A model generated the notes under the pieces. The model saw only the letters and a list, made by a program, of their open reading frames with translations. It had not been told where the DNA came from and did not search any database. DNA of 51,310 nt from Candidatus Nanoarchaeia archaeon (GTDB lineage: Archaea; Nanobdellota; Nanobdellia; SCGC-AAA011-G17; DATDVL01): assembly GCA_035290025.1 (NCBI GenBank), contig DATDVL010000017.1, positions 1 to 51,310 of the forward strand, read 5' to 3'. The translations under genes were made by a program, and so were the position numbers. Each line of letters opens with the position of its first letter. The first letter of the stretch is position 1. Positions 1-51,310 of the stretch are shown piece by piece.

Positions 1-1
1 T

Positions 2-499
2 GTTGTTGGTGGTTCTGATTCTGCCGCTAAGGAAGCGTTGTTATTGTCTGAGCATGCGAAAAAGGTTTATATCTTGGCTCGTTCGTCGTTGCATCCTGAG
101 CCTATTAATATGTTGCGTGTTCAGGAATTGGTGAAGCAAGGTAAGGTTGAAGTTATTGAGAATGTGCAAGTAGAGAAGATTAGTGGCAAGCAAATGTTGT
201 CTTCGGTGACGTTGTCGAAATTGTTCAAGGGTTCTAAAGAATTAGCTGTTGAGGGTTTGTTCATTGAAGTCGGCCACATTGTTGAGAATGAGCTTGCTGT
301 TAAGGTGGGTGTGAAAGTTGATGAGAAGGGTGAGATTGTTATTGATAAGTATTCTCGTACGAATGTCCCTGGCTTTTTTGCTGCGGGTGATGTTACAGAT
401 CGTTCTTTTAAGCAGGCAATTACGGGTGTTGCTGAAGCATGCGTCGCTGCTGATCAGGCCTATAATTTTATTGCTGCGTTGAAGGCTGCGAAGAAATAG
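2..499 (+). CDS. trxB: thioredoxin-disulfide reductase, C-terminal part (5' end lies outside the window)
   Basis: The frame is open from nt 2. [13 protein letters not shown] is a dinucleotide-binding motif and [10 protein letters not shown] is the C-terminal FAD motif. TAG stop at 497-499. Confidence 0.8.
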
Positions 500-970
500 T
501 TATTCGGAAACTAAGAAGTAGCGATTGCCTTGTTTTGACCATCCGACCATTCTTTCATCGCGAATGTATAATTCTTTTTCTCCGTCAAAAACGAATTGAT
601 GGGATGGTTCATGTCTAGTAAGCAATGATATACTGTCGTTATCCATCCATAAAGTTATTTGTAAGTATGAGGGGTTAATTACCATGCCTCGTATAGTTTT
701 TTCTGGGTTGTCGCTACTATCTAATTGCCAGTTACCATCATAATTTATGTCTGTAAATGAGACAACACGTTTTCCCACTAAGAACAATTGTTGTACTCCA
801 CGCGCAAATTCTTCAAATGTACTTTCTGTTAATTTCTGTAAAGTTAATTGTCTCATGCGTGCTCGCAGCGCTGTTGGTTCTGGTAAGATAATGGGTGGCT
901 TGAGGGATAGTGGAATCATGATAACAATGCTTGAATTTTTGTTTAAAAGGGTTATGGCCTTAAGTTCCAT
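500..970 (-). CDS. hypothetical protein (156 aa)
   Basis: ATG at 970 and TAA stop. Amino-acid composition is normal. A TATA-like octamer lies about 22 nt upstream. No family recognised. Confidence 0.5.
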   Translation of the reverse strand: MELKAITLLNKNSSIVIMIPLSLKPPIILPEPTALRARMRQLTLQKLTESTFEEFARGVQQLFLVGKRVVSFTDINYDGNWQLDSSDNPEKTIRGMVINPSYLQITLWMDNDSISLLTRHEPSHQFVFDGEKELYIRDERMVGWSKQGNRYFLVSE

Positions 971-988
971 TCTCTCTCGTTGATAATC

Positions 989-996
989 TTTATATA
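989..996. promoter_or_regulatory. TATA-like box (tttatata) shared by divergent genes 500-970 and 1048-2148
   Basis: A/T octamer in the 77-nt divergent intergenic region. It lies about 22 nt from the minus-strand ATG. The plus-strand gene has an aaggagg Shine-Dalgarno (SD) site at 1033-1039. Confidence 0.4.
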
Positions 997-1047
997 CTTG
1001 TCCTCGTGGAAATTCTGATATTACATTAAGTAAAGGAGGAGATAGTC

Positions 1048-2148
1048 ATGGATGGTTTTGATGGTTTTGGTCCTGAAAAGGTTGTTGAAGTTTATAATCC
1101 TAAGTTGAATATGCATGGTGTGTGTGTTATTGACAATACCGCGTTAGGTCCGTCAAAGGGTGGTATTCGTATGACTCCTTCTGTTTCTATTGATGAAGTG
1201 AAAAGATTAGCTCGTGCCATGACCTGGAAGAATGCTTTGGCTGATTTGCCGTTTGGTGGTGGTAAGTCAGGTATTGTCGCTGATCCTCGTATGATGACAC
1301 CTAAGCAGAAGGATGGTTTGATTCGTGCGTTTGCTGATGCTATTAAGGTTGTTTGTCCTTCTGAGTATGTTGCTTGTCCTGATATGAATACTGCTGAGCA
1401 TGAGATGGGTGTTTTTGCTTCGGTGCTGGGTAAGAAGTCCGTTACGGGTAAGCCTGCCAAAATGGGTGGTTTGCCGCATGAGTTGGGTTCTACGGGTTTT
1501 GGTGTGTATCATGCTGCTTTGGTTGCTTTGCAGCATTTGGGTAAGGATCCTTCGAAGGTTTCTTTTGCTGTTGAGGGTTTCGGTAATGTTGGCTGGTTTG
1601 TTGCTAAGTTTTTGTCTGAGGCGGGTGCTAAACTGGTTGCTGTTTCTGATTCTAAGGGTGTGATCTATAATGAGAAGGGTATTGATTTTAAGAAGTTGGA
1701 TGTGGTGAAGAAGAAGGAAGGTTCTGTTACGAAGTATCCTGGTAAGGTTTTGCCGAGTCATGAGTTGTTAAGTGTGAAGGCTGATATGTTGGTGACTGCT
1801 GCTATTCCTGATTTGTTTGGTATTGGTGATGTTCATCGTATGAAGTTTTCTTCTATTGTTCAGGGTTCTAATATCCCTACGACTCCTGATGTTGAGGATG
1901 TGTTGTATCGTAAGGGTGTTTTGGTGGTTCCTGATGTTGTTGCTAATGCGGGTGGTGTTATTTCTTCATGGGTTGAGTATATCGGTAAGGATCAAAAGTT
2001 TATGTTTAAGTCTGTTCAAGAAAAGGTAAGTAAGAATACGCATGTGGTGTTGTCGCAGTCGGAGAAGAAGGGTATCAAGCCTCGTGATGCTGCTTTGGCT
2101 ATTGCTCAAGAGCGTGTGTTGAAGAAGTGTAAGACGTGTAGGGTTTGA
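1048..2148 (+). CDS. Glu/Leu/Phe/Val amino-acid dehydrogenase (short, ~366 aa form)
   Basis: LGPSKGGIRM and the catalytic-Lys motif PFGGGKSGI are present, as is the Rossmann motif VEGFGNVG. SD aaggagg lies upstream. TGA stop. Confidence 0.85.
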   Translation: MDGFDGFGPEKVVEVYNPKLNMHGVCVIDNTALGPSKGGIRMTPSVSIDEVKRLARAMTWKNALADLPFGGGKSGIVADPRMMTPKQKDGLIRAFADAIKVVCPSEYVACPDMNTAEHEMGVFASVLGKKSVTGKPAKMGGLPHELGSTGFGVYHAALVALQHLGKDPSKVSFAVEGFGNVGWFVAKFLSEAGAKLVAVSDSKGVIYNEKGIDFKKLDVVKKKEGSVTKYPGKVLPSHELLSVKADMLVTAAIPDLFGIGDVHRMKFSSIVQGSNIPTTPDVEDVLYRKGVLVVPDVVANAGGVISSWVEYIGKDQKFMFKSVQEKVSKNTHVVLSQSEKKGIKPRDAALAIAQERVLKKCKTCRV

Positions 2149-2170
2149 TATGGTTTGTTGTTGCAGAACC

Positions 2171-2180
2171 TTTTTATAAT
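2171..2180 (+). promoter_or_regulatory. TATA-like box for the 2201 gene
   Basis: tttttataat is centred about 26 nt upstream of the ATG at 2201, the spacing expected for a leaderless transcript. Confidence 0.45.
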
Positions 2181-2200
2181 TGTAGTGCTTCTCGTTCTGT

Positions 2201-2530: not shown

Positions 2531-2547
2531 TTGTTGTGTTCTCGATA

Positions 2548-2558
2548 GGATTAAAAAC
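2548..2558 (+). promoter_or_regulatory. TATA-like box for pth2
   Basis: ggattaaaaac is centred about 27 nt upstream of the ATG at 2580. Confidence 0.45.
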
Positions 2559-2579
2559 TTGGTATAGTGGTAATATCTT

Positions 2580-3462: not shown

Positions 3463-3483
3463 GTCTTTTTCTTGGTTTTCTTT

Positions 3484-3599
3484 GGAACGGTCATAGCTGC
3501 CTGGTCCTACTGGATCTCGTTTCGATCTCCAAAGTCAAGCAGGCATACGTTCTTCGTTGTACTGTCCTCTGTGACGGGAAGCGGAGATAGCTGTTCCAC
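3484..3599 (+). rRNA. 5S: 5S ribosomal RNA (not linked to 16S/23S in this window)
   Basis: The termini pair (GGAACGG with CTGTTCC). Conserved blocks are present: GGTCATAGC, CTCGTTTCGATCTCCAAAGTCAAGC (compare CUCAUUUCGAACCCGGAAGUUAAGC), GTTGTACTG and GGGAAGC. It is followed by T9. Confidence 0.85.
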
Positions 3600-4943: not shown

Positions 4944-5239
4944 ATTCTTTTGCTGATAAGGTTTACGAGCTATGTAAGAACGTTCCTAGGGGTAAAGTAT
5001 CGACCTATAAGGAGATTGCTCGTGCCCTTAAGTGTAAGGGTTTTCAGGCTGTTGGTCAGGCGTTAAATAAAAACCCGTATGCTCCTGTTGTTCCTTGTCA
5101 TAGAATTGTAAATAGTCGTGGCGAACTTCATGGTTTTGCTTTTGGTTTAAAAAAGAAGAAGGAGTTGTTAGAGTCTGAGGGTGTTGTGGTTGTTAATAAT
5201 AAAGTCGATCTAGAAAAATTTGGTTTTTATTTTCCTTGA
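4940..5239 (+). CDS. ogt: methylated-DNA--protein-cysteine methyltransferase (active-site domain only)
   Basis: The PCHRIV active-site motif and GKVSTYKEIA HTH are present. I take the ATG at 4940 (MNSFADKVY) rather than the GTG at 4922. Confidence 0.8.
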   Translation: MNSFADKVYELCKNVPRGKVSTYKEIARALKCKGFQAVGQALNKNPYAPVVPCHRIVNSRGELHGFAFGLKKKKELLESEGVVVVNNKVDLEKFGFYFP

Positions 5240-6885
5240 GTGATTAGGTGATAGAGCATGTCTAGGTTGAGTTCTAGTGCTGCTGTGGGCATGGTAATGT
5301 TAAAATTGTGTAGTATTTCTGGGTGGAGTTCTCCGATGATGCCGAACATTTTTCCTTGGTGGTTGAGTGTTGCTTTTCTTCCTTTGATGAATACTTCGGA
5401 TGGTTGTTGTGGTTCTTCGTAGGTTATGGTCATGCCTAATTGTTGTGTTAGGTAATCGCTGAGTTGTTTTATTTTGGTGTAGTCTGCTCCTTCTCCGCAG
5501 AGTGTTATGGCTAAGTGTTCTGTTTCTTGTATGCCTGTTTCTGTGTTTCCAGGGTTGAAGATGGTTCCCATTTCGTAGAGGTTTTGGGGGTAGGTGTGGT
5601 GGGTGTTTTTTCCGAGGACTTCCAGTAAGTTTGCTAGGATGTTGTTTCTTAGGACGTTGTAGTCTTCGCTTTTGGTGTCTTCTAGGGGTATAGGTTGCTG
5701 GTTGCTGTTGATTTTGGTTGTTTGTGTTGCTTGGTTGCTGAGGTGGTAGGTGCTTGTTTCAAGGAGTTCTAGTCCTATGAGAAGTTCTGTTATTTTTTCT
5801 TTGAAGATGGTTTGTGGTGCTTCTTGTGCTGTTGTCGCAATGTTGGGTATGATAGTAGGGAAGTTTTCATAACCGTAGGCAATGGCGATGTCTTCAATGA
5901 TGTCTTGTTCGTGGATAATATCTGTTCTATAAGCAGGTACGTGTGCTTTGTGGTTGTTGTAGCCGTAGCCCATTTTTTCTAGTAGTTTTTTCATGTCTGT
6001 TTCTTTGAGGTGTAATCCTAAGAGTTTGTTGACACTAGTGATATTGATGTTCATGGTTGTTGGTGTGAGTTGTGGTGTGGTGAATGTTTTTCCAGGATAG
6101 TTCATGGTTACGTTGTAGAGTGTTCCTCCCATGTCTGCTAGTGTAGTGGTTAAGATGTTGAGTGCTTGTTGTACATTGTTCATGTCTGTTCCTGTGCATT
6201 CTATGAAAACGTCTTTTGTTGTGGTTGTTATTTTTCCTGTGTCTTCTGAGTTGGTGTAGGGGAGCATGGAGAGGACATTGTTTTTTGTATCAATGTAGAA
6301 TGGGTAGAGTTTCCAGTCCTTGGCGATGTGGCAGTATTGTTTTCCTGTTTTGTGTTGTTGTTCTACTTGGTCTGCTCGTATTGGTTTGTTCATGCCTAAG
6401 GGTTGGAAGGTAATAGTTTTCGGGTCTTTGGCGATGTAGCATATGGGGAAGTGTATATGTTCTAAGGGGTAGAGTCCGTAGCATGATTTTTTTCTGTTTC
6501 TTCCGTGTGTTAAGGCTAGTTTTTCTTGAAGTTGCATGATGTCTCGTATGCGTTCGTCCGTGAAGTGTATTCCTTTGACGACTGCGCAGACGCTGTAGGG
6601 TCGCATGGTAACGTTTTTGTCGACGATGACCTGGTAATTGCTTTTTTTTATTGTATAATTGCTGAGTCCTTTTTTTGTTCCAAGGAATGTTTTGAGCGCT
6701 CGTGCGAATCCTTGTTCGCTTAAGAGGTCTGGTCTGTTAGGGAATACTTCTACTTCTATTTCATTTTTAGTAATGCTTTCGACGTCGGTTCCGAGCATGG
6801 CCATGCGGTCTGCTAGTTGCTCGTCGCTAAGTTTTTTCCCTATATTTTTGAGGAGTGCTTGTTTGTTGAAGGTTATTTTTGGCAT
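5227..6885 (-). CDS. pheT: phenylalanine--tRNA ligase beta subunit (archaeal type)
   Basis: 552 aa with the archaeal B3/4-B5-catalytic-like architecture. It sits in an operon with pheS. Confidence 0.9.
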   Translation of the reverse strand: MPKITFNKQALLKNIGKKLSDEQLADRMAMLGTDVESITKNEIEVEVFPNRPDLLSEQGFARALKTFLGTKKGLSNYTIKKSNYQVIVDKNVTMRPYSVCAVVKGIHFTDERIRDIMQLQEKLALTHGRNRKKSCYGLYPLEHIHFPICYIAKDPKTITFQPLGMNKPIRADQVEQQHKTGKQYCHIAKDWKLYPFYIDTKNNVLSMLPYTNSEDTGKITTTTKDVFIECTGTDMNNVQQALNILTTTLADMGGTLYNVTMNYPGKTFTTPQLTPTTMNINITSVNKLLGLHLKETDMKKLLEKMGYGYNNHKAHVPAYRTDIIHEQDIIEDIAIAYGYENFPTIIPNIATTAQEAPQTIFKEKITELLIGLELLETSTYHLSNQATQTTKINSNQQPIPLEDTKSEDYNVLRNNILANLLEVLGKNTHHTYPQNLYEMGTIFNPGNTETGIQETEHLAITLCGEGADYTKIKQLSDYLTQQLGMTITYEEPQQPSEVFIKGRKATLNHQGKMFGIIGELHPEILHNFNITMPTAALELNLDMLYHLITQGK

Positions 6886-6888
6886 GGT

Positions 6889-7317
6889 TTAGAGGCTCTT
6901 CTTCATGAGTACAATTTCTTCTGGTTTATAGTTTCTTTTTTTGTAAATTTGGAATGCTAATGATTGTGGGTGGCTTGCTAGTCCTATAGCTTTTGCTTTC
7001 TTTTTTTTGAAATAGTTCTCTGTGAAGTTAAGTAATTGTCTTCCGTATCCTTGTCCTTGTGATAATTTCTCAATCACTAGTTCTTCTATGAATCCTTCTT
7101 TGCCATGGTCCCAAGTGCGTAGGTTAAGTATGAGAAATCCTTTGACGGTGTTGTTAATAGCAAGTACAAATGTTGTGCAGTTTTTGAAATCTTTTGTTAA
7201 GTGTTCATGTACTGTTTTTTCTGACCAATGTTCATTGTAAGGTTGTTTGGCGTATTCTGTACAGTAAATAGCTGTTATTTTCTTTAGGTCTTTTTTAGTA
7301 GCTTTTCTTATGTTCAT
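6889..7317 (-). CDS. GNAT family N-acetyltransferase
   Basis: The acetyl-CoA motif QGQGYGRQLL is present. 142 aa. Its start overlaps the pheS stop by 4 nt (ATGA). Confidence 0.8.
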   Translation of the reverse strand: MNIRKATKKDLKKITAIYCTEYAKQPYNEHWSEKTVHEHLTKDFKNCTTFVLAINNTVKGFLILNLRTWDHGKEGFIEELVIEKLSQGQGYGRQLLNFTENYFKKKKAKAIGLASHPQSLAFQIYKKRNYKPEEIVLMKKSL

Positions 7318-8825
7318 AGTATCCTCGTCTTCATGGTTCGTAATTGTTCTAGATCATTGCCGTACATGTCTCGTAAGTCTTTGATACCATAGTTCTCTAC
7401 GCTTATTCTGTCAACGCCTAGTCCCCAGGCGAGTACGGGTACGAATTTTCCGAGGAGTGGTTCTACGACTTCTGGTCTGAAGATGCCTGCTCCTCCGAAT
7501 TCTACCCATGTTTTCCTTGTGGGGTGCCAGATGTCTACTTCTACTGATGGTTCTGTGTAGGGGAATGGTCCTGGTCGGAATCGTACTTTGTCATGTCCCA
7601 TGGCGGTGAAGAATGTTTTCAAATAGCCGAGTAGGTGTTGTAGGTTTGCATGTTCATCGATGACAATGCCTTCTGTTTGGTAGAATTCAAATAAGTGTTT
7701 CCAGTCAAGTGTTTCGTTTCTGAATACTTTTCCTACGCTGAAGTATTTGCAGGGTAGTTTTATATTTTTGTCTTTGATGTTTCTGAGTGTTTGTGCAGAC
7801 AAGCAAGTAGTATGTGTTCGTAGCACGTTTCTTTGTGCTTCTTTCGGGTTCCAGTGTTCTCCCCACCCTTTGCTTCCGGTTGTTCCACCGTTTTTATGTA
7901 CTGCTGCTATGTCTTTCCAAAAACTGGGTAGTTTTCCTTGTGCTGGTTGTTTGATATAATAAGTGTCTTGTAGTTCTCGTGCGGGATGGTCTTGTGGCGT
8001 GAAGAGTGCGTCGAAGTTCCAGAAGCTTGTTTGTACTTTTGTTCCTGTCATTTCTTGGAATCCTAGGTTTTTCCAGATGTTTCTGATGTAGTGTAAAGTG
8101 TCGTTAGTGAAGTGTCTTTTTCCTCCCGTGATGGTTGGTACGGGTGCTTTGATGTCGTAGCTTCTGAAGTTTTTGTTTTTCCAGTTTTGTTGTTGGAGGA
8201 GTTGTGGTGTTACTGTTTCTAGGAGTTCAGTGTTGAGTTTGATGGTGGTGAGTTTTCTCCCTAGGGGTGTGAGCTGTATGGTAATAATGGTTTGTTCTTC
8301 TTCTTTGATGAGTTGTTTTCTTTGTTTGAGTTCTTTGAGGAGTTGGGTGTTAAGATTATTTGCGGGTGTTGGTAATTGTTCTAGTAATTGTTGTTCGGGT
8401 GTTTTCTTGGTGAGTAATTCTTCTCCTTTTTTGGTGAGGTCGAGTTTTCCGTTCGTTATGGTTATTGCTTGTTGTTTTTTGAGTGTTCCGAGTGCTATGG
8501 TGAATTCTTCGGGTGTGAGTTTGCTGTTTTCTTTGACGTCGATGATGCTTCGTGGTTTTTTTTCTAGTTCTTTGAGTAATTGTTGTTCTGGCAATCCTTC
8601 CTGTAAGTATTTTTTTCCGTTGTCTCCGAGGGTGATGATAATAGTTGTTATTTTGTTTCTGGTGAGTACGCCTTTGTTTTCTAGCCATTGTAGTGCTCGT
8701 GTTACTTCTACGGGTTGCATGTTGCTTTTCGTAGCAAGTGTTTCTTGGGTGCTATGGTCTTGTAAGTGGGGTAAGATTTTTCTTTCTAGGGGGTGTAATT
8801 GATTAGCCACCTCTTGGATATCCAT
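7314..8825 (-). CDS. pheS: phenylalanine--tRNA ligase alpha subunit (archaeal type)
   Basis: 503 aa. N-terminal winged-helix repeats are followed by class-II motifs (FRPGPFPYTEPSVEVD, GAGIFRPEV). TGA stop. Confidence 0.92.
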   Translation of the reverse strand: MDIQEVANQLHPLERKILPHLQDHSTQETLATKSNMQPVEVTRALQWLENKGVLTRNKITTIIITLGDNGKKYLQEGLPEQQLLKELEKKPRSIIDVKENSKLTPEEFTIALGTLKKQQAITITNGKLDLTKKGEELLTKKTPEQQLLEQLPTPANNLNTQLLKELKQRKQLIKEEEQTIITIQLTPLGRKLTTIKLNTELLETVTPQLLQQQNWKNKNFRSYDIKAPVPTITGGKRHFTNDTLHYIRNIWKNLGFQEMTGTKVQTSFWNFDALFTPQDHPARELQDTYYIKQPAQGKLPSFWKDIAAVHKNGGTTGSKGWGEHWNPKEAQRNVLRTHTTCLSAQTLRNIKDKNIKLPCKYFSVGKVFRNETLDWKHLFEFYQTEGIVIDEHANLQHLLGYLKTFFTAMGHDKVRFRPGPFPYTEPSVEVDIWHPTRKTWVEFGGAGIFRPEVVEPLLGKFVPVLAWGLGVDRISVENYGIKDLRDMYGNDLEQLRTMKTRIL

Positions 8826-15607: not shown

Positions 15608-15638
15608 GGTTAAATAGGATTATTCTTGAGTATTGTTT

Positions 15639-16427
15639 ATGAAGCATTCCTTGTCTGTTTCCTTGTTGTTGGTGGGTTTATTTGTACTTGCGCAGGTTGT
15701 TGGTTTGTTCGTTGTTCAGGGGTATGCTAGTCAGTCGTTGCCCTTGGGTTTGCAGCCTCCTGCGTTGGATCCTGATACATCGTTTATTTCTTTGTTAGGC
15801 ACGGTTATTGTTCTTTCCTTGGTGGTTTGGTTGTTGATGCGTTTTCGTTTTGGTTTTTTGTGGAAGTTTTGGTTTTTCATTTCTTTAACGTTGGTGTTAA
15901 CCGTTGCGTTGGCTGCTTTTCTTCCGGAATTGTGGGCGTTGGGTGTTGCTGTTGTCTTGGCATTGTTGAAGTTGTATCGTCATTCTGTTTTTTGGCATAA
16001 TCTTCCGGAGATGTTGTTGTATGGTGGTTTGGCTGCTGTTTTTGCTCCCGTGTTTTCTTTGTTGTCCTTAGTATTCTTGTTGATATTGATTGCTGTGTAT
16101 GATGCTGTTGCTGTGTGGAAGACGAAGCATATGGTTTCTTTGGCGAAGATGCAGTTGAAGGAGCGTTTGTTTGCAGGTTTGTTGATTCCGTATGGTAAGA
16201 AGAAGTCTGCGTTGTTGGGTGGTGGTGATATTGCTTTTCCGTTGTTGGCGAATGCTGTTTTGTTGCGTGAGTTTGGTGGTGTTGCTGCAGTGATAGGTGT
16301 TGTTTTTGCTGCGGGTGCTTTGTGGTTATTGTTGTGGTTGTCGGAGAAGAATAAGTTTTATCCTGCCATGGTCTTTTTGTCGGTGGGTTCGTTGTTGGCT
16401 ATTGGTCTTAGTTGGTTGTTCGTATAG
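15639..16427 (+). CDS. presenilin/signal-peptide-peptidase homologue (A22 intramembrane aspartyl protease)
   Basis: Polytopic membrane protein with the YD motif (LIAVYDAVAVW), the GxGD motif (LLGGGDIAFP) and a PAL-like motif (FYPAM). ATG at 15639, 25 nt downstream of ggttaaatagg. Confidence 0.75.
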   Translation: MKHSLSVSLLLVGLFVLAQVVGLFVVQGYASQSLPLGLQPPALDPDTSFISLLGTVIVLSLVVWLLMRFRFGFLWKFWFFISLTLVLTVALAAFLPELWALGVAVVLALLKLYRHSVFWHNLPEMLLYGGLAAVFAPVFSLLSLVFLLILIAVYDAVAVWKTKHMVSLAKMQLKERLFAGLLIPYGKKKSALLGGGDIAFPLLANAVLLREFGGVAAVIGVVFAAGALWLLLWLSEKNKFYPAMVFLSVGSLLAIGLSWLFV

Positions 16428-29552: not shown

Positions 29553-29623
29553 TTTGTAGGGGTAGTGCTTTTCTTCTTTTAAATGCGTCGGTAGATTGTT
29601 CGTAGTTACCAATAGGTAGTACT

Positions 29624-32214: not shown

Positions 32215-32333
32215 ATTCCTTAAGTAGATAGTGGTCTTTTTAAATCTTTTTATTGCAACTACTAAAGAATAGTTATCTGGAAGTTGCAAAGGTATTTATA
32301 ATCCTTTTAAATGATGATGGTTGAAGAGGTGTT

Positions 32334-33209: not shown

Positions 33210-33427
33210 TGTTTTCGTTGTTGGTCGTAGGTAGTTTTTTCTAGGCTTGCTAGTCGTTGGTGTAAATTTTCTAGTCGTGCGTTGATCAGGTCGAGTTTGG
33301 TATTAAGGAGGCTGAATTCTTTTGCTAAGTCTAGGATGGGTGGTGTCAGTAAAGGGTGGAGTTGTTGCTCGGGTGTTTTCAGTTCTGGTACTAATCGTTC
33401 CTCTTTTTTCTTGCCGAATATGCCCAT
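33203..33427 (-). CDS. small coiled-coil protein (74 aa), upstream of lspA
   Basis: ATG at 33427. Heptad-like LNTKLDLINARLENLHQRLASLEK. Overlaps the lspA start by 7 nt. Confidence 0.4.
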   Translation of the reverse strand: MGIFGKKKEERLVPELKTPEQQLHPLLTPPILDLAKEFSLLNTKLDLINARLENLHQRLASLEKTTYDQQRKQW

Positions 33428-33451
33428 GCAAAGGCTTATAACTGGGTTTTA

Positions 33452-33462
33452 CTATTTAAATC
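33452..33462. promoter_or_regulatory. TATA box (ctatttaaatc) between divergent 33427 and 33489 genes
   Basis: Centred about 30 nt from the ATG at 33427 (minus) and about 32 nt from the ATG at 33489 (plus). Confidence 0.45.
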
Positions 33463-33488
33463 TTGTCTATGAAGAGGTGCTCGGACAG

Positions 33489-34958
33489 ATGAGTTTTTTG
33501 CAAAAGTTGTTTCCTGTTGAAGAGAAGAAGGATGAGAAGCCTGTTGTTAAGCCTGATGTTCCAGGTAAACCTGCGGGTGATACGTTTCGTTTGATGATTG
33601 ATGCTCCCACATCGGGTGTTGAGCGTTATTATTTTTGGATGATTCGTTTGTTGGAGAAGTCTGGTCCGTATGGTATGAATTTTTATCCGCCGTTGGGTGA
33701 GATTATTAAGGTTCGTGATGTGTATTCTTCTGCAGAGACATCTTCGTATTGGGGTAATGTTGAGCAGAAGAAGGCTGCGCAGCAGGATCGTGTTTCCACG
33801 TACATGGCAAATATTGGTAAGTTCATTAAGGATTTATTTCAGATTGTTCGTGAGTTGCGTATTTTGGATGAGCGCTTGGGGTATTATGATGGTATCCTTA
33901 AGGATGATAAGAATGCGAAGGGTGCTGATGTTGCGTTGAAGGGTATCTGGGTCGATTTGGTTGAGGGTGGTGGTAAGAATCCTGGTTCGGTTTATGGTTT
34001 GGCTTCTCAGGTGGGTTTTGTTACGCTTCCTGATTTGTTTTTTGATACGTTTGTTCGTAAGCGTGAGGATATGGCTGCTGCTGTTGCGGGGTATGAAGGC
34101 ATGGGTATTAATCGTAAGGTTCGTGAGGTGTTGATGCGTAAGTTGGAGCAGTATTTGTTGTGGCGTGATGCTACGGATAAGGAGCTTCGTCAGCGTCGTC
34201 GTTTCGTCTTGTCGTATTTGGCGCAAGAATTTAATGTTATTAAGATGTATGCTGCTTGGTTGAAGCCGTATTTGCAGAATGTTCGTAAGTTGCAGCAGTC
34301 TGCTGATTTGAATAAGTATGATATTGTTACTGCTTTTGATACGTCCAAGATCGAGTTGGAATTGTTGGCGGTTCGTAAGAAGGATCAAAAGTTGGAGAAG
34401 GATTTTGTTGAGAATATTCCTGTGTTGCGTGTTCGTTTGTCGCATGTTGCTATTCCGCAGATGGCGTTTCAGCAGGAGTTTCAGCGTGGTGCTATTCATA
34501 CGGGTCATACGAAGATTATTATTGATGCTTTTGTTGCTTCTAAGGATTCCTTAAAAAAATATCAGCAGGTTCAGGATGGTGATGTTTTTGATGTGTTGAC
34601 AGCTATTGATGAGACAGTGGGTGCGTTGAAGGATGATTTGGAGAAGTATTTGACGGAGGCTGCTACGTTGTATAATTTGAAGGAGTTGAAGACGTTGTTT
34701 CCGGAGAAGCCGAAGGAGGCTAAGAAGCGTGGTGAGTCTGTTTTTGATCCGTTTAAGGCTATTTTTTCTGGTTTTGCTGAGATTGGTAAGGCTCCTTTTT
34801 CTTGGTCGTCTGATGATAGGAAGGAAGAGAAGGAGAAGCCAAAGTTAACGAATGTGCAGGAGCTGGAAGAGGCTGCTTTGGCGAAGGATGCTGCTAAGAC
34901 TGATGCTAAGGTGTTGTATACGGTGTTTAAGAAGGCGCATCGGATGATGACGCCATGA
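33489..34958 (+). CDS. large conserved-looking hypothetical protein (489 aa)
   Basis: ATG at 33489 (MSFLQKLFPVEEKK). The portion of the ORF-track ORF upstream of this overlaps the divergent gene and promoter. No NTP-binding or catalytic motif recognised. Mostly helical, with a K/E-rich C-terminal tail. Confidence 0.6.
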   Translation: MSFLQKLFPVEEKKDEKPVVKPDVPGKPAGDTFRLMIDAPTSGVERYYFWMIRLLEKSGPYGMNFYPPLGEIIKVRDVYSSAETSSYWGNVEQKKAAQQDRVSTYMANIGKFIKDLFQIVRELRILDERLGYYDGILKDDKNAKGADVALKGIWVDLVEGGGKNPGSVYGLASQVGFVTLPDLFFDTFVRKREDMAAAVAGYEGMGINRKVREVLMRKLEQYLLWRDATDKELRQRRRFVLSYLAQEFNVIKMYAAWLKPYLQNVRKLQQSADLNKYDIVTAFDTSKIELELLAVRKKDQKLEKDFVENIPVLRVRLSHVAIPQMAFQQEFQRGAIHTGHTKIIIDAFVASKDSLKKYQQVQDGDVFDVLTAIDETVGALKDDLEKYLTEAATLYNLKELKTLFPEKPKEAKKRGESVFDPFKAIFSGFAEIGKAPFSWSSDDRKEEKEKPKLTNVQELEEAALAKDAAKTDAKVLYTVFKKAHRMMTP

Positions 34959-34967
34959 GGGTGATGT

Positions 34968-36941
34968 ATGGCTGGTTTTGAGTCTGATTATGTTAATGCG
35001 AATGATCGTGGTATTTTTGATGAGTCTACGAAGGATGGTTTGCGCCGTTTGGGTGTTTCTCATGGTGTTGGTGATGTTTCTGAGGGTTTGAAGGCGAACA
35101 TTTTTGCTGGTGCTTCGTTGGTGGAGTTGGGTTTTACAGGTACAGGTAAGTCTCAAGGTAAACAAGCCCCTTCTCCAGAAACGTTTGGTCGTGATGAGCG
35201 TGAGGAGATGCGTTTGCTTGCGAAAATTAATGAGGTAGAAATTTCTGTGCATGCTGCTCCTAACATTGGTCCGTTGTCAGGTTTTGATGGTCGTGGTCGT
35301 TTTGATCCTGCGTTGGCGCAGTCGCGCGTGAATGAGGTCAAGAAGGCTATTGATTTTGCTGCTGATGTTGCTAGTGGTGGTGCTGTTGTTGTCCATACGG
35401 ATGAGTTTCCTCGTCCCGTGTTTGATGTTGATCGTCCTGGCGAGTATAAGCATATTGAGGCTGAGGCTGATGGTAAGAAGAATAAGTTTCAGCAGTTTGC
35501 GGAAGAGGGTGATAAGTCGGTTATTTATTTGGTTGATGAGAGGTCTGGCCAGATTATTGATCAGGTGAAGCGTGATGAGAAAATTTTTACTCCTGAGTAT
35601 GATCGTTATGTAGAGATGAAGGATAATAAGGGTAAAGTGTTAATAAATGATTTGACGGGTGAGAAGCGTTATCTTCCTTTGTATAAGGTTGATGAGCGTG
35701 GTGAGATTCAGTTTAAGACGCAGACGTTTGCTGGTTATTTAGAGAGTGAACAAGAGAAGGCTAGGGCTGAAGGTAGAGAACTTTCTGAAGAAAGTGTTGC
35801 TAAACAGTTTTTCCGTGAGCAGAAGGCTAAGGAATTGGAGCGTGCTCGTGGTCAGGCTGATGAGTATGAAATCCAGTTTCAGCAGGCTAAGGAAGTTCGT
35901 GAGAAGATTGAGAAGTCTTTGGGTTTTTATCAGAAGTTAAAGGCGGAGACGTACAAGAATTTTGATAAGGTTACTGCTGATGAGAAGTGGGAGGAGATGA
36001 AGCGTGAGGTTAAGACGGGTAATTTTATTCCTCCTGATACGGTTGATCCTATTGATTTTTTGGAGAAGGAGAAGAATCGTGTTGAGAAGCAGATGTCGTA
36101 TGGTGCTGAGGTTGCTAATGCTGCTCGTCAGCAGTTGAAGGAGGCTGAGGATTTGATTAAGAATCGTGTTGTTTCTTTGGGTGAGTTTGGTGTGAAGCAG
36201 GCTGCGAAGTCGTATGCTGATGCTGCGTTGTATGCGTATCAGGTTGAGCAGAAGCGTAAAGATGAGGGTCGTCCTTTGGATCGTAATTTGTTTGTTGCTC
36301 CTGAGGGTTGGCAGACAGAGTCGTATGGTTCTCATCCTAAGGAGATGCGTGAGTTGATTCAAGAGTCTCGTCAGCAGATGGCGGAGAAGTTGCGTGAGAA
36401 GGAAGGTAAAGATGATTATGGTAATTGGAAGCTTTCGGAAAAGAAGGCTTTGGATATTGCTCAGGATCATATTCAAGGCACATTAGATGTTGGTCATATT
36501 AATAATTGGCGTAAGCACTTTCAGGGTTCTGATGATCAGTTTAACAAGTGGTTAGTAGATAATGTTAAGGAGATGGTGAAGGATAAGGTTATTGGTAATA
36601 TTCATATTTCTGATAATTTTGGTTATCATGATGAGCATTTGCGTGTGGGTGAGGGTAATGCTCCTATTAAGGAGTTGTTGCAGCAGTTGGAGAAGGGTGG
36701 TTATAAGGGTCATTATGTTGCTGAGCCTGGCGGTCAGAAGCAGGGGCAGTTTCATACTGCTTGGACGTCTGCTTTGGCATTGTCAGGTTCTCCTATCTAT
36801 CGTACAGATCGTTCGTCTCGTTCCTGGACGGATATTCAGGGTTCGTACTTTGGTGGTACGCCAGGTCCTAATTATCTGGTGGGTGAGGGTGTTGTTCCTT
36901 CCAAAGAATTTACGTTGTGGTCGCAGGTTCCTTTAGAATAA
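34968..36941 (+). CDS. xylose-isomerase-like TIM-barrel (AP_endonuc_2 superfamily) protein interrupted by a ~285-aa coiled-coil insertion
   Basis: N-terminal barrel blocks are EISVHAAPN and GGAVVVHTDEF. C-terminal blocks are FVAPEG, GTLDVGHINNW, IGNIHISDNFGYHDEHLRVGEGNAPIKELL and GHYVAEPG. Residues ~150-435 are E/K/Q-rich and helical. SD gaggtga lies before the ATG, 9 nt after the upstream stop. Confidence 0.6.
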   Translation: MAGFESDYVNANDRGIFDESTKDGLRRLGVSHGVGDVSEGLKANIFAGASLVELGFTGTGKSQGKQAPSPETFGRDEREEMRLLAKINEVEISVHAAPNIGPLSGFDGRGRFDPALAQSRVNEVKKAIDFAADVASGGAVVVHTDEFPRPVFDVDRPGEYKHIEAEADGKKNKFQQFAEEGDKSVIYLVDERSGQIIDQVKRDEKIFTPEYDRYVEMKDNKGKVLINDLTGEKRYLPLYKVDERGEIQFKTQTFAGYLESEQEKARAEGRELSEESVAKQFFREQKAKELERARGQADEYEIQFQQAKEVREKIEKSLGFYQKLKAETYKNFDKVTADEKWEEMKREVKTGNFIPPDTVDPIDFLEKEKNRVEKQMSYGAEVANAARQQLKEAEDLIKNRVVSLGEFGVKQAAKSYADAALYAYQVEQKRKDEGRPLDRNLFVAPEGWQTESYGSHPKEMRELIQESRQQMAEKLREKEGKDDYGNWKLSEKKALDIAQDHIQGTLDVGHINNWRKHFQGSDDQFNKWLVDNVKEMVKDKVIGNIHISDNFGYHDEHLRVGEGNAPIKELLQQLEKGGYKGHYVAEPGGQKQGQFHTAWTSALALSGSPIYRTDRSSRSWTDIQGSYFGGTPGPNYLVGEGVVPSKEFTLWSQVPLE

Positions 36942-37022
36942 ATTTGTTGGTAAGTGTGCATTATAGTTTGTAGAATAACCTTTATATAGCTTGTTTTCTT
37001 AGTATTTTTGGGTTAAAAGAGG

Positions 37023-37847
37023 ATGAAGTTTGATATTCCTAAGGGTGATAAGAAGAATAGTTCTCGTTATTTAGGTGAGGATTTGGATGTTGTTCGTAAG
37101 TTTGCTCGTATTCTCTATAAAGAGTTTGGTTCTTTTTTGCGTTGTGTTGTCTTGTTTGGTTCTTCGGTGAAAAATCCTGGTCAGAAGCATCGTGATTTGG
37201 ATGTGTTAGTGGTGGTTGATGATGTTCGTTATCCTTTTGCTCAGGAGGTTGTTGAGGCGTATCGTCTGATTCTTGCTCGTGCTGTTAAGGATGTTGATCC
37301 GCAGCGTTTACATATACAGAGTATGAAGTTGTCTGCGTGGTGGGAGTATGTTCGTGCGGGTGATCCTGTTGCGATTAATGTTTTGCGGTATGGTGTTGCT
37401 GTTATTGATACAGGCTTTTTTGATCCGTTGCAGGCCTTGTTGGAGCAGGGTCGTATTCGTCCTACAGGTGAGGCTATTTGGACGTATTTCACGTTGGCTC
37501 CTGCTTCGTTGGCGCGGTCTCGTGAGAACTTGTTGACGGCTGTTGTTGATTTGTATTGGGCTGCTGTTGATGCGGGTCATGCTGCGTTGATGGTTATTGG
37601 TGAAATCCCTCCTAATCCTTCGGGTGTTGCTGAGTTGGTTGATGCTAAGTTGGCGGGTCATGGTCATATTAAGCCGAAGCATGCTCGTATGATGGCTGAG
37701 TTGTTTCGGGTGTTTAAGGGTATTGTGCATCGTGAAATTAAGGAAGTTTCTGGTAAGTATTATGATGAGTTACGTGCAAAGTCTGAGGAGTTTGTTCGTG
37801 TGATGAAAGAGTTTATTGAGAAGCAGAAGCGTGATGGTAAGTTTTAG
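37023..37847 (+). CDS. nucleotidyltransferase-domain protein with C-terminal helical domain
   Basis: VVLFGSSVKNPGQKHRDLDVLVVVDD is a Pol-beta-type NTase GS...DxD motif. The C-terminal ~150 aa are homologous to the corresponding part of 45130-46971. Confidence 0.65.
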   Translation: MKFDIPKGDKKNSSRYLGEDLDVVRKFARILYKEFGSFLRCVVLFGSSVKNPGQKHRDLDVLVVVDDVRYPFAQEVVEAYRLILARAVKDVDPQRLHIQSMKLSAWWEYVRAGDPVAINVLRYGVAVIDTGFFDPLQALLEQGRIRPTGEAIWTYFTLAPASLARSRENLLTAVVDLYWAAVDAGHAALMVIGEIPPNPSGVAELVDAKLAGHGHIKPKHARMMAELFRVFKGIVHREIKEVSGKYYDELRAKSEEFVRVMKEFIEKQKRDGKF

Positions 37848-39122: not shown

Positions 39123-39836
39123 ATGGTAAACTGCATAAATTGTGGAAATGATCCGTGTGATCAGAGTAATTATAACTGTCCAGGTTATGTAAACCCTTTT
39201 AGTACTTTAAATTTTAGTTGTCCGACTTGCAATAACGATCCGTGTGACAATAGTCAACCCGGTTGTCCTGGTTATGTAAATCCAAGTCCAGCACCTTCAA
39301 GTGGTGTAAGTACACAATCAAATACTGGTTCGCCCAGTACAGGAGGAAATAACATGTCTATGGCAAAGATTATTGGTGGAGCTGTTGCTGCCATTGGGTT
39401 AGCTAGTTTAGGAGCTTATGCTGGCTGTTCAAGTGGTAAAGCAAGTGGCTTAGAAGAAGGTAAACAAGCAGGTATTGTAGAAGGTACAAAGGTGGGAGAT
39501 ACAACAGGGTATGCACGTGGTCTTGCTGAAATGCAGGCAAAGTATAGTGCTACAGGTCGTTTCGATGTCATGACACAGGATAGATTATTTGATCCTATGA
39601 CTGGACGAGAATTGCCTATTACTCAGTTGGATACGACTGTGGGTAAGTTGAGATTGCACCCTGTACCTGTTACTGCACCAGGTGGACGTATGTCTGTTAA
39701 AGGTGTAGATGTTGGCGCAGTTGTTTGGGAAGCTGAAATTATTGATAGCTTGAAAGTACCGCAAGGTCCTGATGCTACCACTGTGCAGTATGGTAATGAC
39801 AATCGTCGTGTACGATTAGTCTATAAGGATCGATAA
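39123..39836 (+). CDS. single-pass membrane protein with duplicated N-terminal Cys-rich module
   Basis: SD ggagg. The motif C-x2-C-x-NDPCD-x5-C-PGYVNP occurs twice. It is followed by an S/P/G linker, a TM segment (IIGGAVAAIGLASLGAYAG) and a ~130-aa C-terminal domain. Base composition is not G+T skewed. Confidence 0.55.
   Translation: MVNCINCGNDPCDQSNYNCPGYVNPFSTLNFSCPTCNNDPCDNSQPGCPGYVNPSPAPSSGVSTQSNTGSPSTGGNNMSMAKIIGGAVAAIGLASLGAYAGCSSGKASGLEEGKQAGIVEGTKVGDTTGYARGLAEMQAKYSATGRFDVMTQDRLFDPMTGRELPITQLDTTVGKLRLHPVPVTAPGGRMSVKGVDVGAVVWEAEIIDSLKVPQGPDATTVQYGNDNRRVRLVYKDR
39132..39284 (+). repeat. tandem duplication of a 22-codon Cys-rich module (39132-39197 and 39219-39284)
   Basis: CINCGNDPCDQSNYNCPGYVNP versus CPTCNNDPCDNSQPGCPGYVNP. 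The nucleotide similarity is visible (gatccgtgtga../..ggttatgtaaa). Confidence 0.7.
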
Positions 39837-39848
39837 GGAGGAACAAAA

Positions 39849-40151
39849 ATGATAGGAAAGAAAACATTAACAAGTTTAGTTTTGGCTACAGGATTGACGG
39901 GTTGTACCATTTCACCGTTGCCTATAAAGATGACAATAGTTGGTGGAGCACCAAATACTGCACCCGCAACCTACAATGACAATCGTCACATCGTAAATGT
40001 TGATGCACCTGATGCAAAAACAATTTATGTTGGTAGTGATATTAGTGGTGATGTTAGTACTGTTGACCCTTGGTTAACTCCTGCTATACAACCACAGCCT
40101 GTGCAGAACAATACGAGAAATAAGTATCAGTATCAGCCTTTCGTCAGATAA
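39849..40151 (+). CDS. small putative lipoprotein (100 aa)
   Basis: SD aaggagg. Signal peptide with lipobox: LVLATGLTGC. Confidence 0.5.
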   Translation: MIGKKTLTSLVLATGLTGCTISPLPIKMTIVGGAPNTAPATYNDNRHIVNVDAPDAKTIYVGSDISGDVSTVDPWLTPAIQPQPVQNNTRNKYQYQPFVR

Positions 40152-44139: not shown

Positions 44140-45129
44140 ATGAACAAAAAAGTACTTACTGTTGCAACGCTTGCTTCTGTCGTAGGCGCTTTTGCATTAA
44201 CGGAAATGAATGATAGTCTTAGAGATAATGCTCCTATGCCTGTGGTTCTAGAAGCAGAAGATGTTGTGCCTGAGCAAGTGCCTGAAGATATTCCTAGTGT
44301 TATTGTGCCAGTTGTTGAGCCAGTCCCTGAGGCTCTACCTGTAGTCCCTCCTGTCAGTCCTGTTCCTGTTGTGCCCATCGTGCCTCCGCAAGAAACATAC
44401 GCACAAATGGTTGCAAGATTAACAAATGAGTTTGATGTTATTGAAAAGTGTGAGCCCGTGAATAATAATGTGTATACATTGCGTTTTAGAAAAGTCATTG
44501 GCGTTGATACCCAGGGTGTTGCTGAGGCTGATGTCTATGAGTTCTTATCTGGTGTAAGGAAAAGTAAGAAGCTACGTGTTACGTATGAAACTGTTGAAGA
44601 AGATTTTACAGGTGTTTTGGTTGCGCCAGGTGATTTGGAATTAACAACTGATGTACTTGCTTCTGGTAATGATTACTTGTTTAGTGGTGTGCATTTGAAA
44701 AATGGTGTGTTCTGTCTTAATGATGGTAGGCCTATTGATTTTGAAGAGACTATTGATATCTTGCTGGGACAGGCTGCTTATAAAGAAGCTTTAAAAAATC
44801 CTCCGCAAAAGGTTGTAGTCACAGATAGCCCTGTAATTAAAGACGTAGTCCAGCCAGTAGCTGTGCAGCCAAAAGTACAACGAGAAAAAAGTTCTTTGGA
44901 GAGGGTTATCGATTCTATTCCTTTCATTTCATTGCTAGGCAATAAAAAAGATGATAAGCCTGCTGATCCCGCGCCTACACAGGATGTTCAAATGGTACCT
45001 CCCTGTCCACAGGTGTACTTGCCCGTTCCTCAAAGTAATATTCATGATGTTGCAAAGTATTCTTCAAGTGCTAGCAGGTATGGCATTCAATGGGTGAAGA
45101 AGCCTTTCCCTGATAGTAGTAAGAAATAG
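44140..45129 (+). CDS. secreted protein with Pro/Val-rich linker (329 aa)
   Basis: SD aaggag. Signal peptide MNKKVLTVATLASVVGAFA, then PVVPEQVPEDIPSVIVPVVEPVPEALPVVPPVSPVPVVPIVPP. Composition departs from the window-wide skew. Confidence 0.5.
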   Translation: MNKKVLTVATLASVVGAFALTEMNDSLRDNAPMPVVLEAEDVVPEQVPEDIPSVIVPVVEPVPEALPVVPPVSPVPVVPIVPPQETYAQMVARLTNEFDVIEKCEPVNNNVYTLRFRKVIGVDTQGVAEADVYEFLSGVRKSKKLRVTYETVEEDFTGVLVAPGDLELTTDVLASGNDYLFSGVHLKNGVFCLNDGRPIDFEETIDILLGQAAYKEALKNPPQKVVVTDSPVIKDVVQPVAVQPKVQREKSSLERVIDSIPFISLLGNKKDDKPADPAPTQDVQMVPPCPQVYLPVPQSNIHDVAKYSSSASRYGIQWVKKPFPDSSKK

Positions 45130-49528: not shown

Positions 49529-49580
49529 TATAATTTTAGGGTTATTGTATATATTTATAGTTTCTGTTTATAGAATTATT

Positions 49581-50096: not shown

Positions 50097-50135
50097 GCAG
50101 TAAATTTATAAGAGGTTATTTATGAAGGTTATGGT

Positions 50136-50420
50136 ATGTTGCCGCCAAAAGTTCCTGGGTATAATCTGGAGTTGGAGAAGTTGGTGCAGTATATTAAGCG
50201 TGAGAAATGTAAGACTATATGTTTGCAGTGTGCTGATGGTTTGAAGCCGTACGCGTTGCCGTTGGTAGAATATTTGGAGTCGGAGACGGATGCTAAGGTT
50301 GTTATTTGGTTGGATACGAATTGGGGTTCGTGTGATTATCCTGCTTTTGTGAAGGGTATTGATTTGTTGGTGAATATTGGTCATACATCTCCTGTTGATT
50401 TGATGCCTAATCCCGAATAG
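50136..50420 (+). pseudogene. dph2: N-terminal ~94-codon fragment of diphthamide synthase Dph2
   Basis: LELEKLVQYIKREKCKTICLQCADGLKPYALPLVEYLESETDAKVVIWLDTNWGSCDYPAFVKGIDLLVNIGHTS aligns with the Dph2 N-terminus (..LIQSPEGL...YGACD...LIHLGHS). Full-length Dph2 is about 330-340 aa. No continuation in any frame. Confidence 0.55.
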
Positions 50421-50483
50421 TTTTCAGAAGTTAGTTAGATTCTTTGCAGTCTATGATTAAGGTGTGCACTGTAGTTGCTAAGA

Positions 50484-50885
50484 TTATGCTACTTCTTGTT
50501 GTGGCTTTTGAAGTGTTGCAAGAATGGTAGGTAAGTATTTTTTCTCATCATCACGAAGTATGTTCCATGGTTCGTTGGTTTGTGGTTGCATGCGTTCGTC
50601 AAGTTTTCTTTCTGCGGCAATGACCAGTCCTCCAAGTCTTGTTACGATAAGGTGTTCTAGTCCTTCTTCTTTGAGGAGGTTTCCTTGTGCCACTTTTCTT
50701 TGTTGTTGGTGTATACGTCGGTAGCAGATGTGTATTTCTTCTGTATCACCGACATAACCGTGGGTGAATGATGTGTTTACGACGCCGAAGGCTTCTGTTA
50801 CTTCAGGGGTGGAATCAAAAACAGAAAGATGTGTTTGTGCGTAATCACTAAGAGTGTTCAGTTGTTGTGTTAACACACGAATCAT
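50484..50885 (-). CDS. hypothetical protein (133 aa)
   Basis: ATG at 50885. No family recognised. Confidence 0.45.
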   Translation of the reverse strand: MIRVLTQQLNTLSDYAQTHLSVFDSTPEVTEAFGVVNTSFTHGYVGDTEEIHICYRRIHQQQRKVAQGNLLKEEGLEHLIVTRLGGLVIAAERKLDERMQPQTNEPWNILRDDEKKYLPTILATLQKPQQEVA

Positions 50886-51002
50886 GAATAAGATTTTATC
50901 ATGTTCTGTTTTTAATGCTTTCGATAGTTAGTTTTCGTCAATGAAGAGGGGTGAAAATGTTTATAGTAACAGTTTTATAGTTCTTAGATTAATAAAACAC
51001 TA

Positions 51003-51203
51003 ATGTCTAACTTCGATTTTGAAAAAAATGGTGATCGTCCGCCGTTGAAGGTTTTAGAGCATCTTTTGGAGACGGCAAGGACTATGGGCAGTTCTGATTT
51101 GCATTTAGCGGCAGGTACTGTTCCTAAGTTTCGTATGGGTGAGGAATTAGTTGATCATCCTTCTGTTATATTAGTTTACGACAAAAGAAACGCATATAAA
51201 TAA
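51003..51203 (+). pseudogene. N-terminal fragment (66 codons) of a PilT/PilB-like secretion ATPase
   Basis: LLETARTMGSSDLHLAAGTVPKFRMGEEL matches the PilT N-terminal block (..GASDLHLSAGLPPMIRVDG..). It stops long before any Walker A motif. Base composition changes at about 51170. Confidence 0.5.
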
Positions 51204-51221
51204 GTTCTACTTCTTATTTGT

Positions 51222-51310
51222 ATGATAACCATAAAAGAGCGTGGATTAATCATCCAATGGGATGAAAAAGGAAAAGCTCAGCAAGAAATTGCTGAATTGT
51301 TAAACTGCCA
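51222..51310 (+). CDS. 5' end of an HTH-containing ORF (possibly an IS-type transposase or resolvase); runs off the window
   Basis: MITIKERGLIIQWDEKGKAQQEIAELLNC resembles the N-terminal HTH of IS630-like transposases (R-x-R-I...G-x-S-x-x-EIA-x-x-L). The region is A-rich and unskewed. Only 29 codons are visible. Confidence 0.3.
   Translation, partial: MITIKERGLIIQWDEKGKAQQEIAELLNC

Follow-up and report, generated by a model that had tools for sequence, protein, structure and literature searches.

Why should one strand of a cellular chromosome be rich in G and T, whichever way its genes are read? This question is raised by contig DATDVL010000017.1 (assembly GCA_035290025.1), which was analysed over its whole length of 51,310 nt and is called the window hereafter. 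Judged from the homologues of its aCPSF1 protein, the window is a chromosomal segment of a Woesearchaeales-type DPANN archaeon from groundwater of the Rifle aquifer. It was regarded as chromosomal because it carries, together with its left extension, genes for aminoacyl-tRNA synthetases (aaRS), ribosomal proteins, RNA polymerase subunit E', Spt4 and gyrase. The + strand of the window showed a mutational strand asymmetry, which is a known kind of phenomenon, but here it has record strength and occurs in a domain where it was thought to be nearly absent.

Base composition of the window

The + strand of the window (positions 1 to 51310) contained 19738 T, 13485 G, 10154 A and 7933 C. The G+T content was therefore 64.75%, which is 66.8 standard deviations away from parity, and the keto-rich (G+T-rich) + strand proposed in the first-pass annotation from five 60-nt lines counted by hand was borne out by a window-wide value that was not near 50%; all five hand counts were exact on recount. 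The GC content was 41.7%, with a GC skew of +0.26 and a TA skew of +0.32 on the + strand, and the excess per kb amounted to 108 G and 187 T. G exceeded C in each of the 51 one-kb bins, and T exceeded A in 50 of them. Intergenic DNA was skewed with the same sign (GC +0.30, TA +0.22). No sign switch was detected within the window, and the skew continued for at least 18 kb leftward on ENA scaffold_1334, with the same sign in the left extensions L089 and L110.

The identical sequence has been assembled independently from several Rifle aquifer samples (ENA ERZ28563803, ERZ28563625, ERZ27254763 and ERZ4903055, Logan SRR3989344, and JGI 3300002502), with 99.7-100% identity among the assemblies away from contig ends. 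The 56 differences between assemblies, considered as possible population single-nucleotide polymorphisms, clustered at contig ends and were discarded as assembly artefacts.

The skew as a property of the strand

The reality of the genes on both strands was judged by Pfam matches. On the + strand, the genes for glutamate dehydrogenase (GDH), a presenilin/signal peptide peptidase (SPP) homologue and a TIM-barrel protein were confirmed in this way, and on the - strand, those for PheS, PheT, Tyr/TrpRS, GluRS, aCPSF1/FttA, CCA enzyme, RsmB, UPP synthase, TrmB, L10e and L35Ae. Further genes of the window were those for PTH2 and 5S rRNA on the + strand, and for a proteasome subunit and the ribosomal proteins L7Ae, S28e and L24e on the - strand.

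At the 4-fold degenerate sites of the Pfam-confirmed + genes, the base frequencies were T70 G19 A6 C5 (%), whereas those of the - genes, read on their own coding strand, were A51 C35 T11 G4 (%); the G+T fraction of the + strand was thus 0.90 and 0.86, respectively. Taken gene by gene, the fraction was between 0.72 and 0.94 for almost all genes of either orientation. With the Morton & Morton 2007 estimator, used here for a single replication arm, the 4-fold skew was then split into an orientation-independent part and a coding-strand part. As a result, the orientation-independent (strand) component was 0.65 for GC and 0.64 for TA (0.91 combined), and the coding-strand component was about 0 (GC -0.14, TA 0.05). 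At 2-fold sites, where transitions are the sole silent change, the T/C ratio of the + strand was 10.8 in + genes and 14.3 in - genes, and the G/A ratio was 3.4 and 3.1, respectively. The skew at both kinds of site kept its sign and size in the two gene classes and did not flip, in agreement with the earlier claim that the enrichment belongs to the strand irrespective of coding orientation.

Magnitude of the skew compared with known systems

In a survey of 352 bacterial chromosomes, replication-dependent 4-fold skew was greatest in Blochmannia (0.43 GC and 0.11 TA, combined 0.446) and Borrelia (0.23 and 0.30, combined 0.378) (PMC2099444). The combined value of the window, and values of up to 1.09 in its clade, lie far above this bacterial maximum, so that the magnitude is indeed beyond ordinary prokaryotic skew, as had been supposed. 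Bacterial leading/lagging asymmetry (Borrelia burgdorferi; Blochmannia, Ehrlichia) resembles that of the window in several respects: G exceeds C and T exceeds A at silent sites regardless of gene orientation, the strand divides codon usage and, less markedly, amino-acid usage, and the effect is strongest in reduced genomes (PMC2099444). The window differs in the size of both components, which reach 0.74 for GC and 0.81 for TA in the sister species described below, in its archaeal host, in that no origin-centred sign switch was seen, and in that most genes lie on the A+C-rich strand.

In a 2026 survey of 874 archaeal replicons, G equalled C within strands (r2 = 1.00), the excess of G per kb was about 7-8 in archaea and 23-25 in bacteria, and archaea were concluded to be largely devoid of strand-specific mutation or repair bias, although some have single-origin, bacteria-like cumulative skews (PMC12999951). 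The window belongs to the same domain, but with its 108 excess G per kb the intra-strand parity is broken. It contradicts the generalisation of archaeal parity, with a silent-site skew more than twice that of the strongest of the 352 bacterial chromosomes and comparable with that of animal mitochondrial DNA (mtDNA).

[quoted passage not shown] In Ch65 (Ca. Chazhemtobacterium aquaticus), one strand contains 29.8% C and 15.0% G across the closed chromosome, beside 27.9% A and 27.3% T, and its authors propose unidirectional replication (PMC7143001). This whole-chromosome G/C disparity is also a feature of Collierbacteria and Beckwithbacteria. Ch65 resembles the host of the window as an ultra-small, uncultivated inhabitant of a subsurface aquifer; its GC skew (0.33) is likewise very large and unrelated to gene distribution, and the C-rich strand carries the rRNA genes and slightly more than half of all genes (PMC7143001). 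However, Ch65 has GC skew without AT skew, whereas the window has both, and one strand of Ch65 is about 58% A+C compared with 65% in the window. Moreover, Ch65 is closed with a continuous skew and belongs to another domain, while about 69 kb are known here.

The heavy strand of human mtDNA contains about 62% G+T (64.7% in the window). The vertebrate heavy strand resembles the + strand of the window in the loss of C and A, at a similar or lesser magnitude. It differs in that its asymmetry arises by strand-displacement replication of a 16-kb circle, whereas the window is part of a cellular chromosome, on which genes for gyrase, aaRS and ribosomal proteins are found. In addition, mitochondrial skew is graded by single-stranded time, and no such gradient was seen here: the correlation between per-gene 4-fold G+T and position was -0.03 (Spearman, p = 0.81) over 51 kb, a distance that may be too short, or at sites that may be too saturated, for a gradient to show. 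Codon and amino-acid usage are also affected in vertebrate mtDNA (PMC2779903).

Distribution of the skew among relatives

The trait was present at full strength in two other species. In GCA_030649875.1, whose FttA is 95% identical to that of the window, it was found on two contigs, which were read on the complementary strand and accordingly showed a 4-fold G+T of 0.10-0.13; in GCA_030648755.1, FttA is 86% identical. The nearest other relatives, two genomes that are syntenic gene for gene, were symmetric. The first, GCA_964365915.1 from Hainich groundwater (FttA 85% and Rpb7 80% identical), has a GC content of 0.41, with 4-fold frequencies of A.27-.33, C.21-.22, G.18-.24 and T.27-.28. The second is GCA_053530935.1 (Rpb7 81% identical). 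In a quartet analysis with FttA and GluRS, the three skewed species grouped together in 54-90% of bootstraps, and a single origin of the skew in three sister species would be the simplest reading, with moderate support from these trees. The 4-fold sites were saturated against the unskewed relatives (identity 0.28-0.34), and the onset of the trait was therefore undatable.

Across 58 other Woesearchaeales loci, the median strand component was 0.12. Five of these (L080, L079, L015, L061 and L056) reached 0.53-0.77, each above the strongest bacterial value of the 2007 survey, and the clade of the window reached 0.89-1.09 (combined). One of the five, L080, showed a very strong TA skew (+0.73) with a weak GC skew of opposite sign (-0.27). 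In four of the five, most genes lie on the G+T-rich (or T-rich) strand, as in bacteria. Strong orientation-independent skew is thus recurrent in Woesearchaeales, with the clade of the window as its extreme. A metagenome scan for closer strains yielded one identical fragment and otherwise unskewed relatives only. For Woesearchaeota or DPANN, the literature searches yielded no description of strand skew other than a normal cumulative one in a Diapherotrites genome.

Direction of the bias

The first-pass annotation had read the composition as an excess of C>T and A>G changes on the + strand, and the 2-fold sites were compared with those of the unskewed syntenic relative GCA_964365915.1 (locus L116) in this respect. 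The relative showed a T/C ratio of 1.9 and a G/A ratio of 0.55 in both orientations. The equilibrium ratios of the window were each about 6-fold higher, to the same extent in both orientations, and the product of the two strand asymmetries was about 37-44, compared with about 1 in the relative. The composition therefore fits the proposed direction. The depletion of C was free of context: C/(C+T) was 0.04-0.13 over all 5' and 3' neighbours, and no deaminase-like sequence context was found.

Sequences that are probably young or are strongly constrained departed from the rule. Three stretches of open reading frames (ORFs) without informative Pfam matches were weakly skewed or unskewed within the skewed background. 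The first (31567..32289, - strand, 4-fold G+T 0.59) has no counterpart in sister species 2. The second comprises two nearly unskewed ORFs (39123..40151, + strand, 4-fold G+T 0.55-0.57) and coincides with the sole one-kb bin in which the TA skew was 0 or below. The third (44140..45129, + strand, 4-fold G+T 0.65) has no Pfam match. All of them look like recent insertions, probably acquired DNA that has not yet been ameliorated. A similar case was found on ENA scaffold_1334 at a distance of about 11-12 kb to the left of the window, where a free-standing LAGLIDADG_3 homing-endonuclease ORF (L110 6041-7141) has a GC content of 0.31 and unskewed 4-fold sites (A40 T38) and shares about 70 nt with the 3' end of the Nth gene. 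It is missing at this locus in all four relatives and looks like a recent mobile insertion. Unskewed recent inserts match a mutational process that acts over time. Among constrained sequences, the 5S rRNA gene (3483..3599, + strand; T33 G31 C30 A23) was essentially unskewed, and the amino-acid composition of FttA was unchanged even though the synonymous sites of its gene (17483..19381, - strand), which served as the phylogenetic marker, were fully skewed.

Origin of the asymmetry

The account that we consider probable, with some reservation, is a leading/lagging asymmetry linked to replication, which would have been amplified in the common ancestor of the three sister species when a function in repair or fidelity was lost or altered. 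The DNA of the window would then have reached equilibrium under a very strong mutational bias that is specific to the strand, in which C>T and A>G on the + strand, or their mispair equivalents on the nascent strand (G:dTTP and T:dGTP), outrun the complementary changes by a combined factor of about 40. Weakly constrained positions would be pushed to T and G whatever the direction of transcription, and the bias would write two opposite codon usages and opposite trends of amino-acid replacement on the two strands. Its source would be the ordinary asymmetry of the fork, with the approximately 69 kb lying within one replichore, and its amplifier the failure of an eraser, such as deaminated-base repair, the correction of mismatches, or the proofreading activity of one of two strand-specific polymerases. 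The cause suggested in the first-pass annotation, prolonged exposure of one strand as single-stranded DNA or a lack of deaminated-base repair, is plausible. The combination of C>T and A>G may have two sources: hydrolytic deamination of the strand that is more often single-stranded, or G:T wobble mispairs that are made or left uncorrected on one strand. An asymmetry of polymerases or of mismatch correction would yield the same G+T enrichment as deamination. By analogy, an amplified asymmetry would parallel the endosymbionts with reduced genomes that head the bacterial list.

Several observations weigh against this account. Neither the approximately 69 contiguous kb of the window and its left extension nor the contigs of the two sister species contained a sign switch, and the 69 kb contained no origin, no orc1/cdc6 gene and only chance-level repeats resembling origin recognition boxes (ORB); a link to bidirectional replication is therefore only presumed. 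The way in which genes point is also contrary to the bacterial rule that the G-rich strand is the one rich in genes and in highly expressed genes. The - strand encodes about 64% of coding bases, whose coding strand is thus A+C-rich, and the same applies to 16 of 18 informational genes of the window and L110 (those for ribosomal proteins, aaRS, RpoE', Spt4, aCPSF1, the proteasome, CCA enzyme and RsmB), only 5S rRNA and PTH2 being encoded on the G+T-rich strand. Should genes and fork run in the same direction here, the lagging strand would be the G+T-rich one, and the classical model of deamination on a single-stranded template would fail; an explanation by polymerase errors would be favoured over template deamination in that case. 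Either the region is head-on to replication, or the G+T-rich strand is lagging, or the chromosome is not replicated bidirectionally. The placement of the 16 informational genes may reflect this head-on or co-directional organisation, or else selection for codons decoded by Watson-Crick pairing. The C/A-ending codons of - genes would pair in this way with GNN/UNN anticodons, while + genes would use wobble, which could favour highly expressed genes on the - strand.

No udg, nfi or polymerase gene was present in the approximately 86 kb visible. Catalytic residues are retained in the nearby genes of the Nth, Ogg2 and MGMT-like types, which look intact, and inactivation of a nearby repair gene was rejected as the cause. 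The window species and the unskewed relatives all have the Ogg2-type 8-oxoguanine glycosylase gene (L110 8289-8879), whose position is taken by a glyoxalase-family gene in sister species 2 (L118 7557-7967); for this reason, it is not the cause of the shared skew. Finally, the substitution spectrum was inferred with maximum-likelihood models (12-rate non-reversible and general time-reversible) and by parsimony polarisation at 549 4-fold sites common to the three skewed species (513 from - genes and 36 from + genes). The estimates were unstable, with C at about 3% of sites, sites near saturation, and parsimony returning mostly common-to-rare changes. The reproducible point, obtained from raw difference counts among the skewed species in an enlarged set of 711 + 239 4-fold sites, was that A/G differences were over-represented relative to C/T differences after allowing for base frequencies.

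An unlikely competitor is a chromosome-wide, one-directional asymmetry, in which unidirectional, strand-displacement or rolling-circle-like replication would make the same strand G+T-rich all round. It would explain the uniform sign over about 69 kb and in every contig of the three species; however, 69 kb is less than 10% of a typical DPANN genome, and a normal replichore also predicts a uniform sign. The magnitude, at least that of human mtDNA, and a gene orientation unlike the usual G-rich, gene-rich leading strand are in its favour, but the mitochondria-like gradient expected of it was not seen, within the limits of scale and saturation given above. Ch65 offers a precedent in an ultra-small groundwater organism, down to the rRNA genes and slight gene majority on the C-rich strand (PMC7143001), yet it has no AT skew. 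Furthermore, the moderately skewed Woesearchaeales behave as expected of ordinary leading-strand skew. In its strongest form, this competitor would imply that the whole chromosome violates Chargaff's second rule through a fundamentally asymmetric replication, either unidirectional or with a mitochondria-like exposed strand, which arose recently and is possibly the same as that of aquifer CPR bacteria. We hold this form to be doubtful as well. Because sister lineages that are syntenic and equal in GC content are perfectly symmetric, the replication mode would be recent, and it would be the first of its kind in a cellular archaeal chromosome.

A process that targets one strand apart from the fork, such as a DNA deaminase, a base modification, or selection on strand composition through avoidance of secondary structure, appears very improbable. 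The loss of C and A has the direction expected of deaminases, but motif-specific enzymes would not deplete C uniformly in all contexts, and no process apart from replication is known to mark one strand over tens of kilobases. Inverted repeats are nearly absent from the window (3 pairs of at least 18 nt, compared with 51 direct-repeat families), as avoidance of hairpins would predict, but this scarcity follows automatically from the skew.

An effect of transcription or codon selection, by which skew would track gene direction and gene-strand bias, has been proposed for most archaeal skews, and the 2026 survey ascribes archaeal GC skews chiefly to gene-strand bias and translational selection (PMC12999951). 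The window does carry a gene-strand bias, as given above. Nevertheless, the equality of the 4-fold and 2-fold skews in the two gene orientations, the orientation-dependent component of about 0, and the like skew of intergenic DNA exclude transcription, codon selection and gene-strand bias as causes, and this explanation is refuted, with hardly any probability left to it. Still weaker is a technical artefact (damaged or converted template, chimeric assembly, or strand-specific sequencing error), which has nothing in its favour besides the odd composition and is refuted by the identical sequence from several samples and pipelines, by intact conserved genes on both strands with strong Pfam and PDB matches, by the trait in two other species with separate metagenome-assembled genomes at NCBI, and by the unskewed inserts inside the skewed contig.

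The clade offers a natural experiment: three sister species have the trait, and close genomes that are syntenic gene for gene and have the same GC content do not. A comparison of their gene content and catalytic motifs could reveal what normally suppresses leading/lagging asymmetry in archaea. Candidate suppressors are deaminated-base repair, mismatch repair of the NucS type, and the sharing of tasks between PolB and PolD.

Consequences for codon usage and proteins

The codon frequencies of + and - genes were anti-correlated (r = -0.34). GGT encoded 82% of Gly in + genes but 8% in - genes, while GGA encoded 3% and 66%, respectively; Lys was encoded by AAG (84%) in + genes and by AAA (91%) in - genes. 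Likewise, CGT accounted for 77% of Arg in + genes and 5% in - genes, TTG for 61% and 2% of Leu, and AGC for 1% and 50% of Ser. TAA was the stop codon of 31 of 41 - genes and 6 of 20 + genes. The two codon dialects described in the first-pass annotation are therefore real and stark.

The accompanying claim of two proteome compositions held in direction and proved moderate in extent. Between + and - genes, V differed in one direction (9.3% vs 3.8%), and I (3.7% vs 8.7%) and T (2.5% vs 8.0%) in the other. The + genes contained more V, G, A, F, S and R, and the - genes more I, T, N, K and Q, whereas the differences supposed for L, C, P and H were marginal or missing. Comparison with the orthologues of the unskewed syntenic relative showed that replacements flip with the strand. 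At codon positions 1-2 of genes with an A+C-rich coding strand, 345 replacements lowered the keto content and 178 raised it, and the opposite was observed for genes with a G+T-rich coding strand (120 raising, 64 lowering). In the same orthologue-controlled comparison, the ratio of I>V to V>I was 12:32 on the A+C-rich coding strand and 13:4 on the G+T-rich one. A family-wide comparison gave ratios of 1.74 in the + strand gene family and 0.54 in the - strand one for I>V to V>I, and of 2.8 and 0.35, respectively, for T>A. No amino-acid shift was detected in FttA, the most conserved protein. The effect of the strand on proteins is thus real but moderate, and is absent from the most conserved protein.

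Two opposite codon usages in one genome can mislead composition-based binning, gene calling, codon-adaptation indices and the detection of horizontal transfer, and strand-dependent amino-acid drift can bias DPANN phylogenies.

Genes and other features of the window

The two dialects are readily seen in single genes. The GDH gene (1048..2148, + strand; Pfam 2.3e-50) is written in keto-rich codons, with 4-fold frequencies of T74 G19 A3 C4, as is the gene for the presenilin/SPP homologue (15633..16427, + strand; Pfam 1.5e-12), in which I>V and V>I changes against unskewed orthologues numbered 11:1. Three successive genes at 33282..37847 (+ strand), which encode a protein of 558 aa, a TIM-barrel protein of 657 aa and a nucleotidyltransferase-like protein, had 4-fold G+T values of 90-94%. 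The 657-aa protein, matched as 'AP_endonuc_2', was not callable as endonuclease IV, and belongs to a sugar-phosphate-isomerase-like TIM-barrel family. Codons rich in the amino bases A and C are found in pheT, an acetyltransferase gene and pheS (5227..8825, - strand; Pfam for pheT and pheS), where the + strand had a 4-fold G+T of 87-88% for pheT and pheS but of 76% for the acetyltransferase gene, which is short, and in the Pfam-confirmed GluRS gene (27894..29612, - strand), the second marker for relatives.

No tRNA gene was detected by ARAGORN in the window and the loci L110, L108, L109, L006, L087 and L114, together about 150 kb of the clade and its relatives. This absence may be due to chance, or to intron-containing or split tRNA genes that ARAGORN misses. 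Between the HSP20 and L24e genes, which are adjacent in sister species 2, the window has about 600 nt (25269-25859), in which an Rfam search found no RNA gene and a 196-aa ORF is doubtful. The skew leaves a near-zero hairpin potential, which raises the question of transcript termination.

Left of the window, gyrB and gyrA enclose a B3_4-domain gene, and inteins were noted in GyrA and a Pyr_redox_2 protein of GCA_053530935.1 (L110 12655-17657 and L114 16428-20342). At the right end of the window (51003..51310, + strand), a short ORF whose product looks like the N-terminal part of a PilT-type ATPase is cut off early. Next comes what seems to be the helix-turn-helix beginning of a transposase similar to that of IS630, in unskewed, A-rich sequence; both were identified by eye only. 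This end is a recurrent assembly break that limits any rightward extension: four independent assemblies end within about 100 nt of this point.

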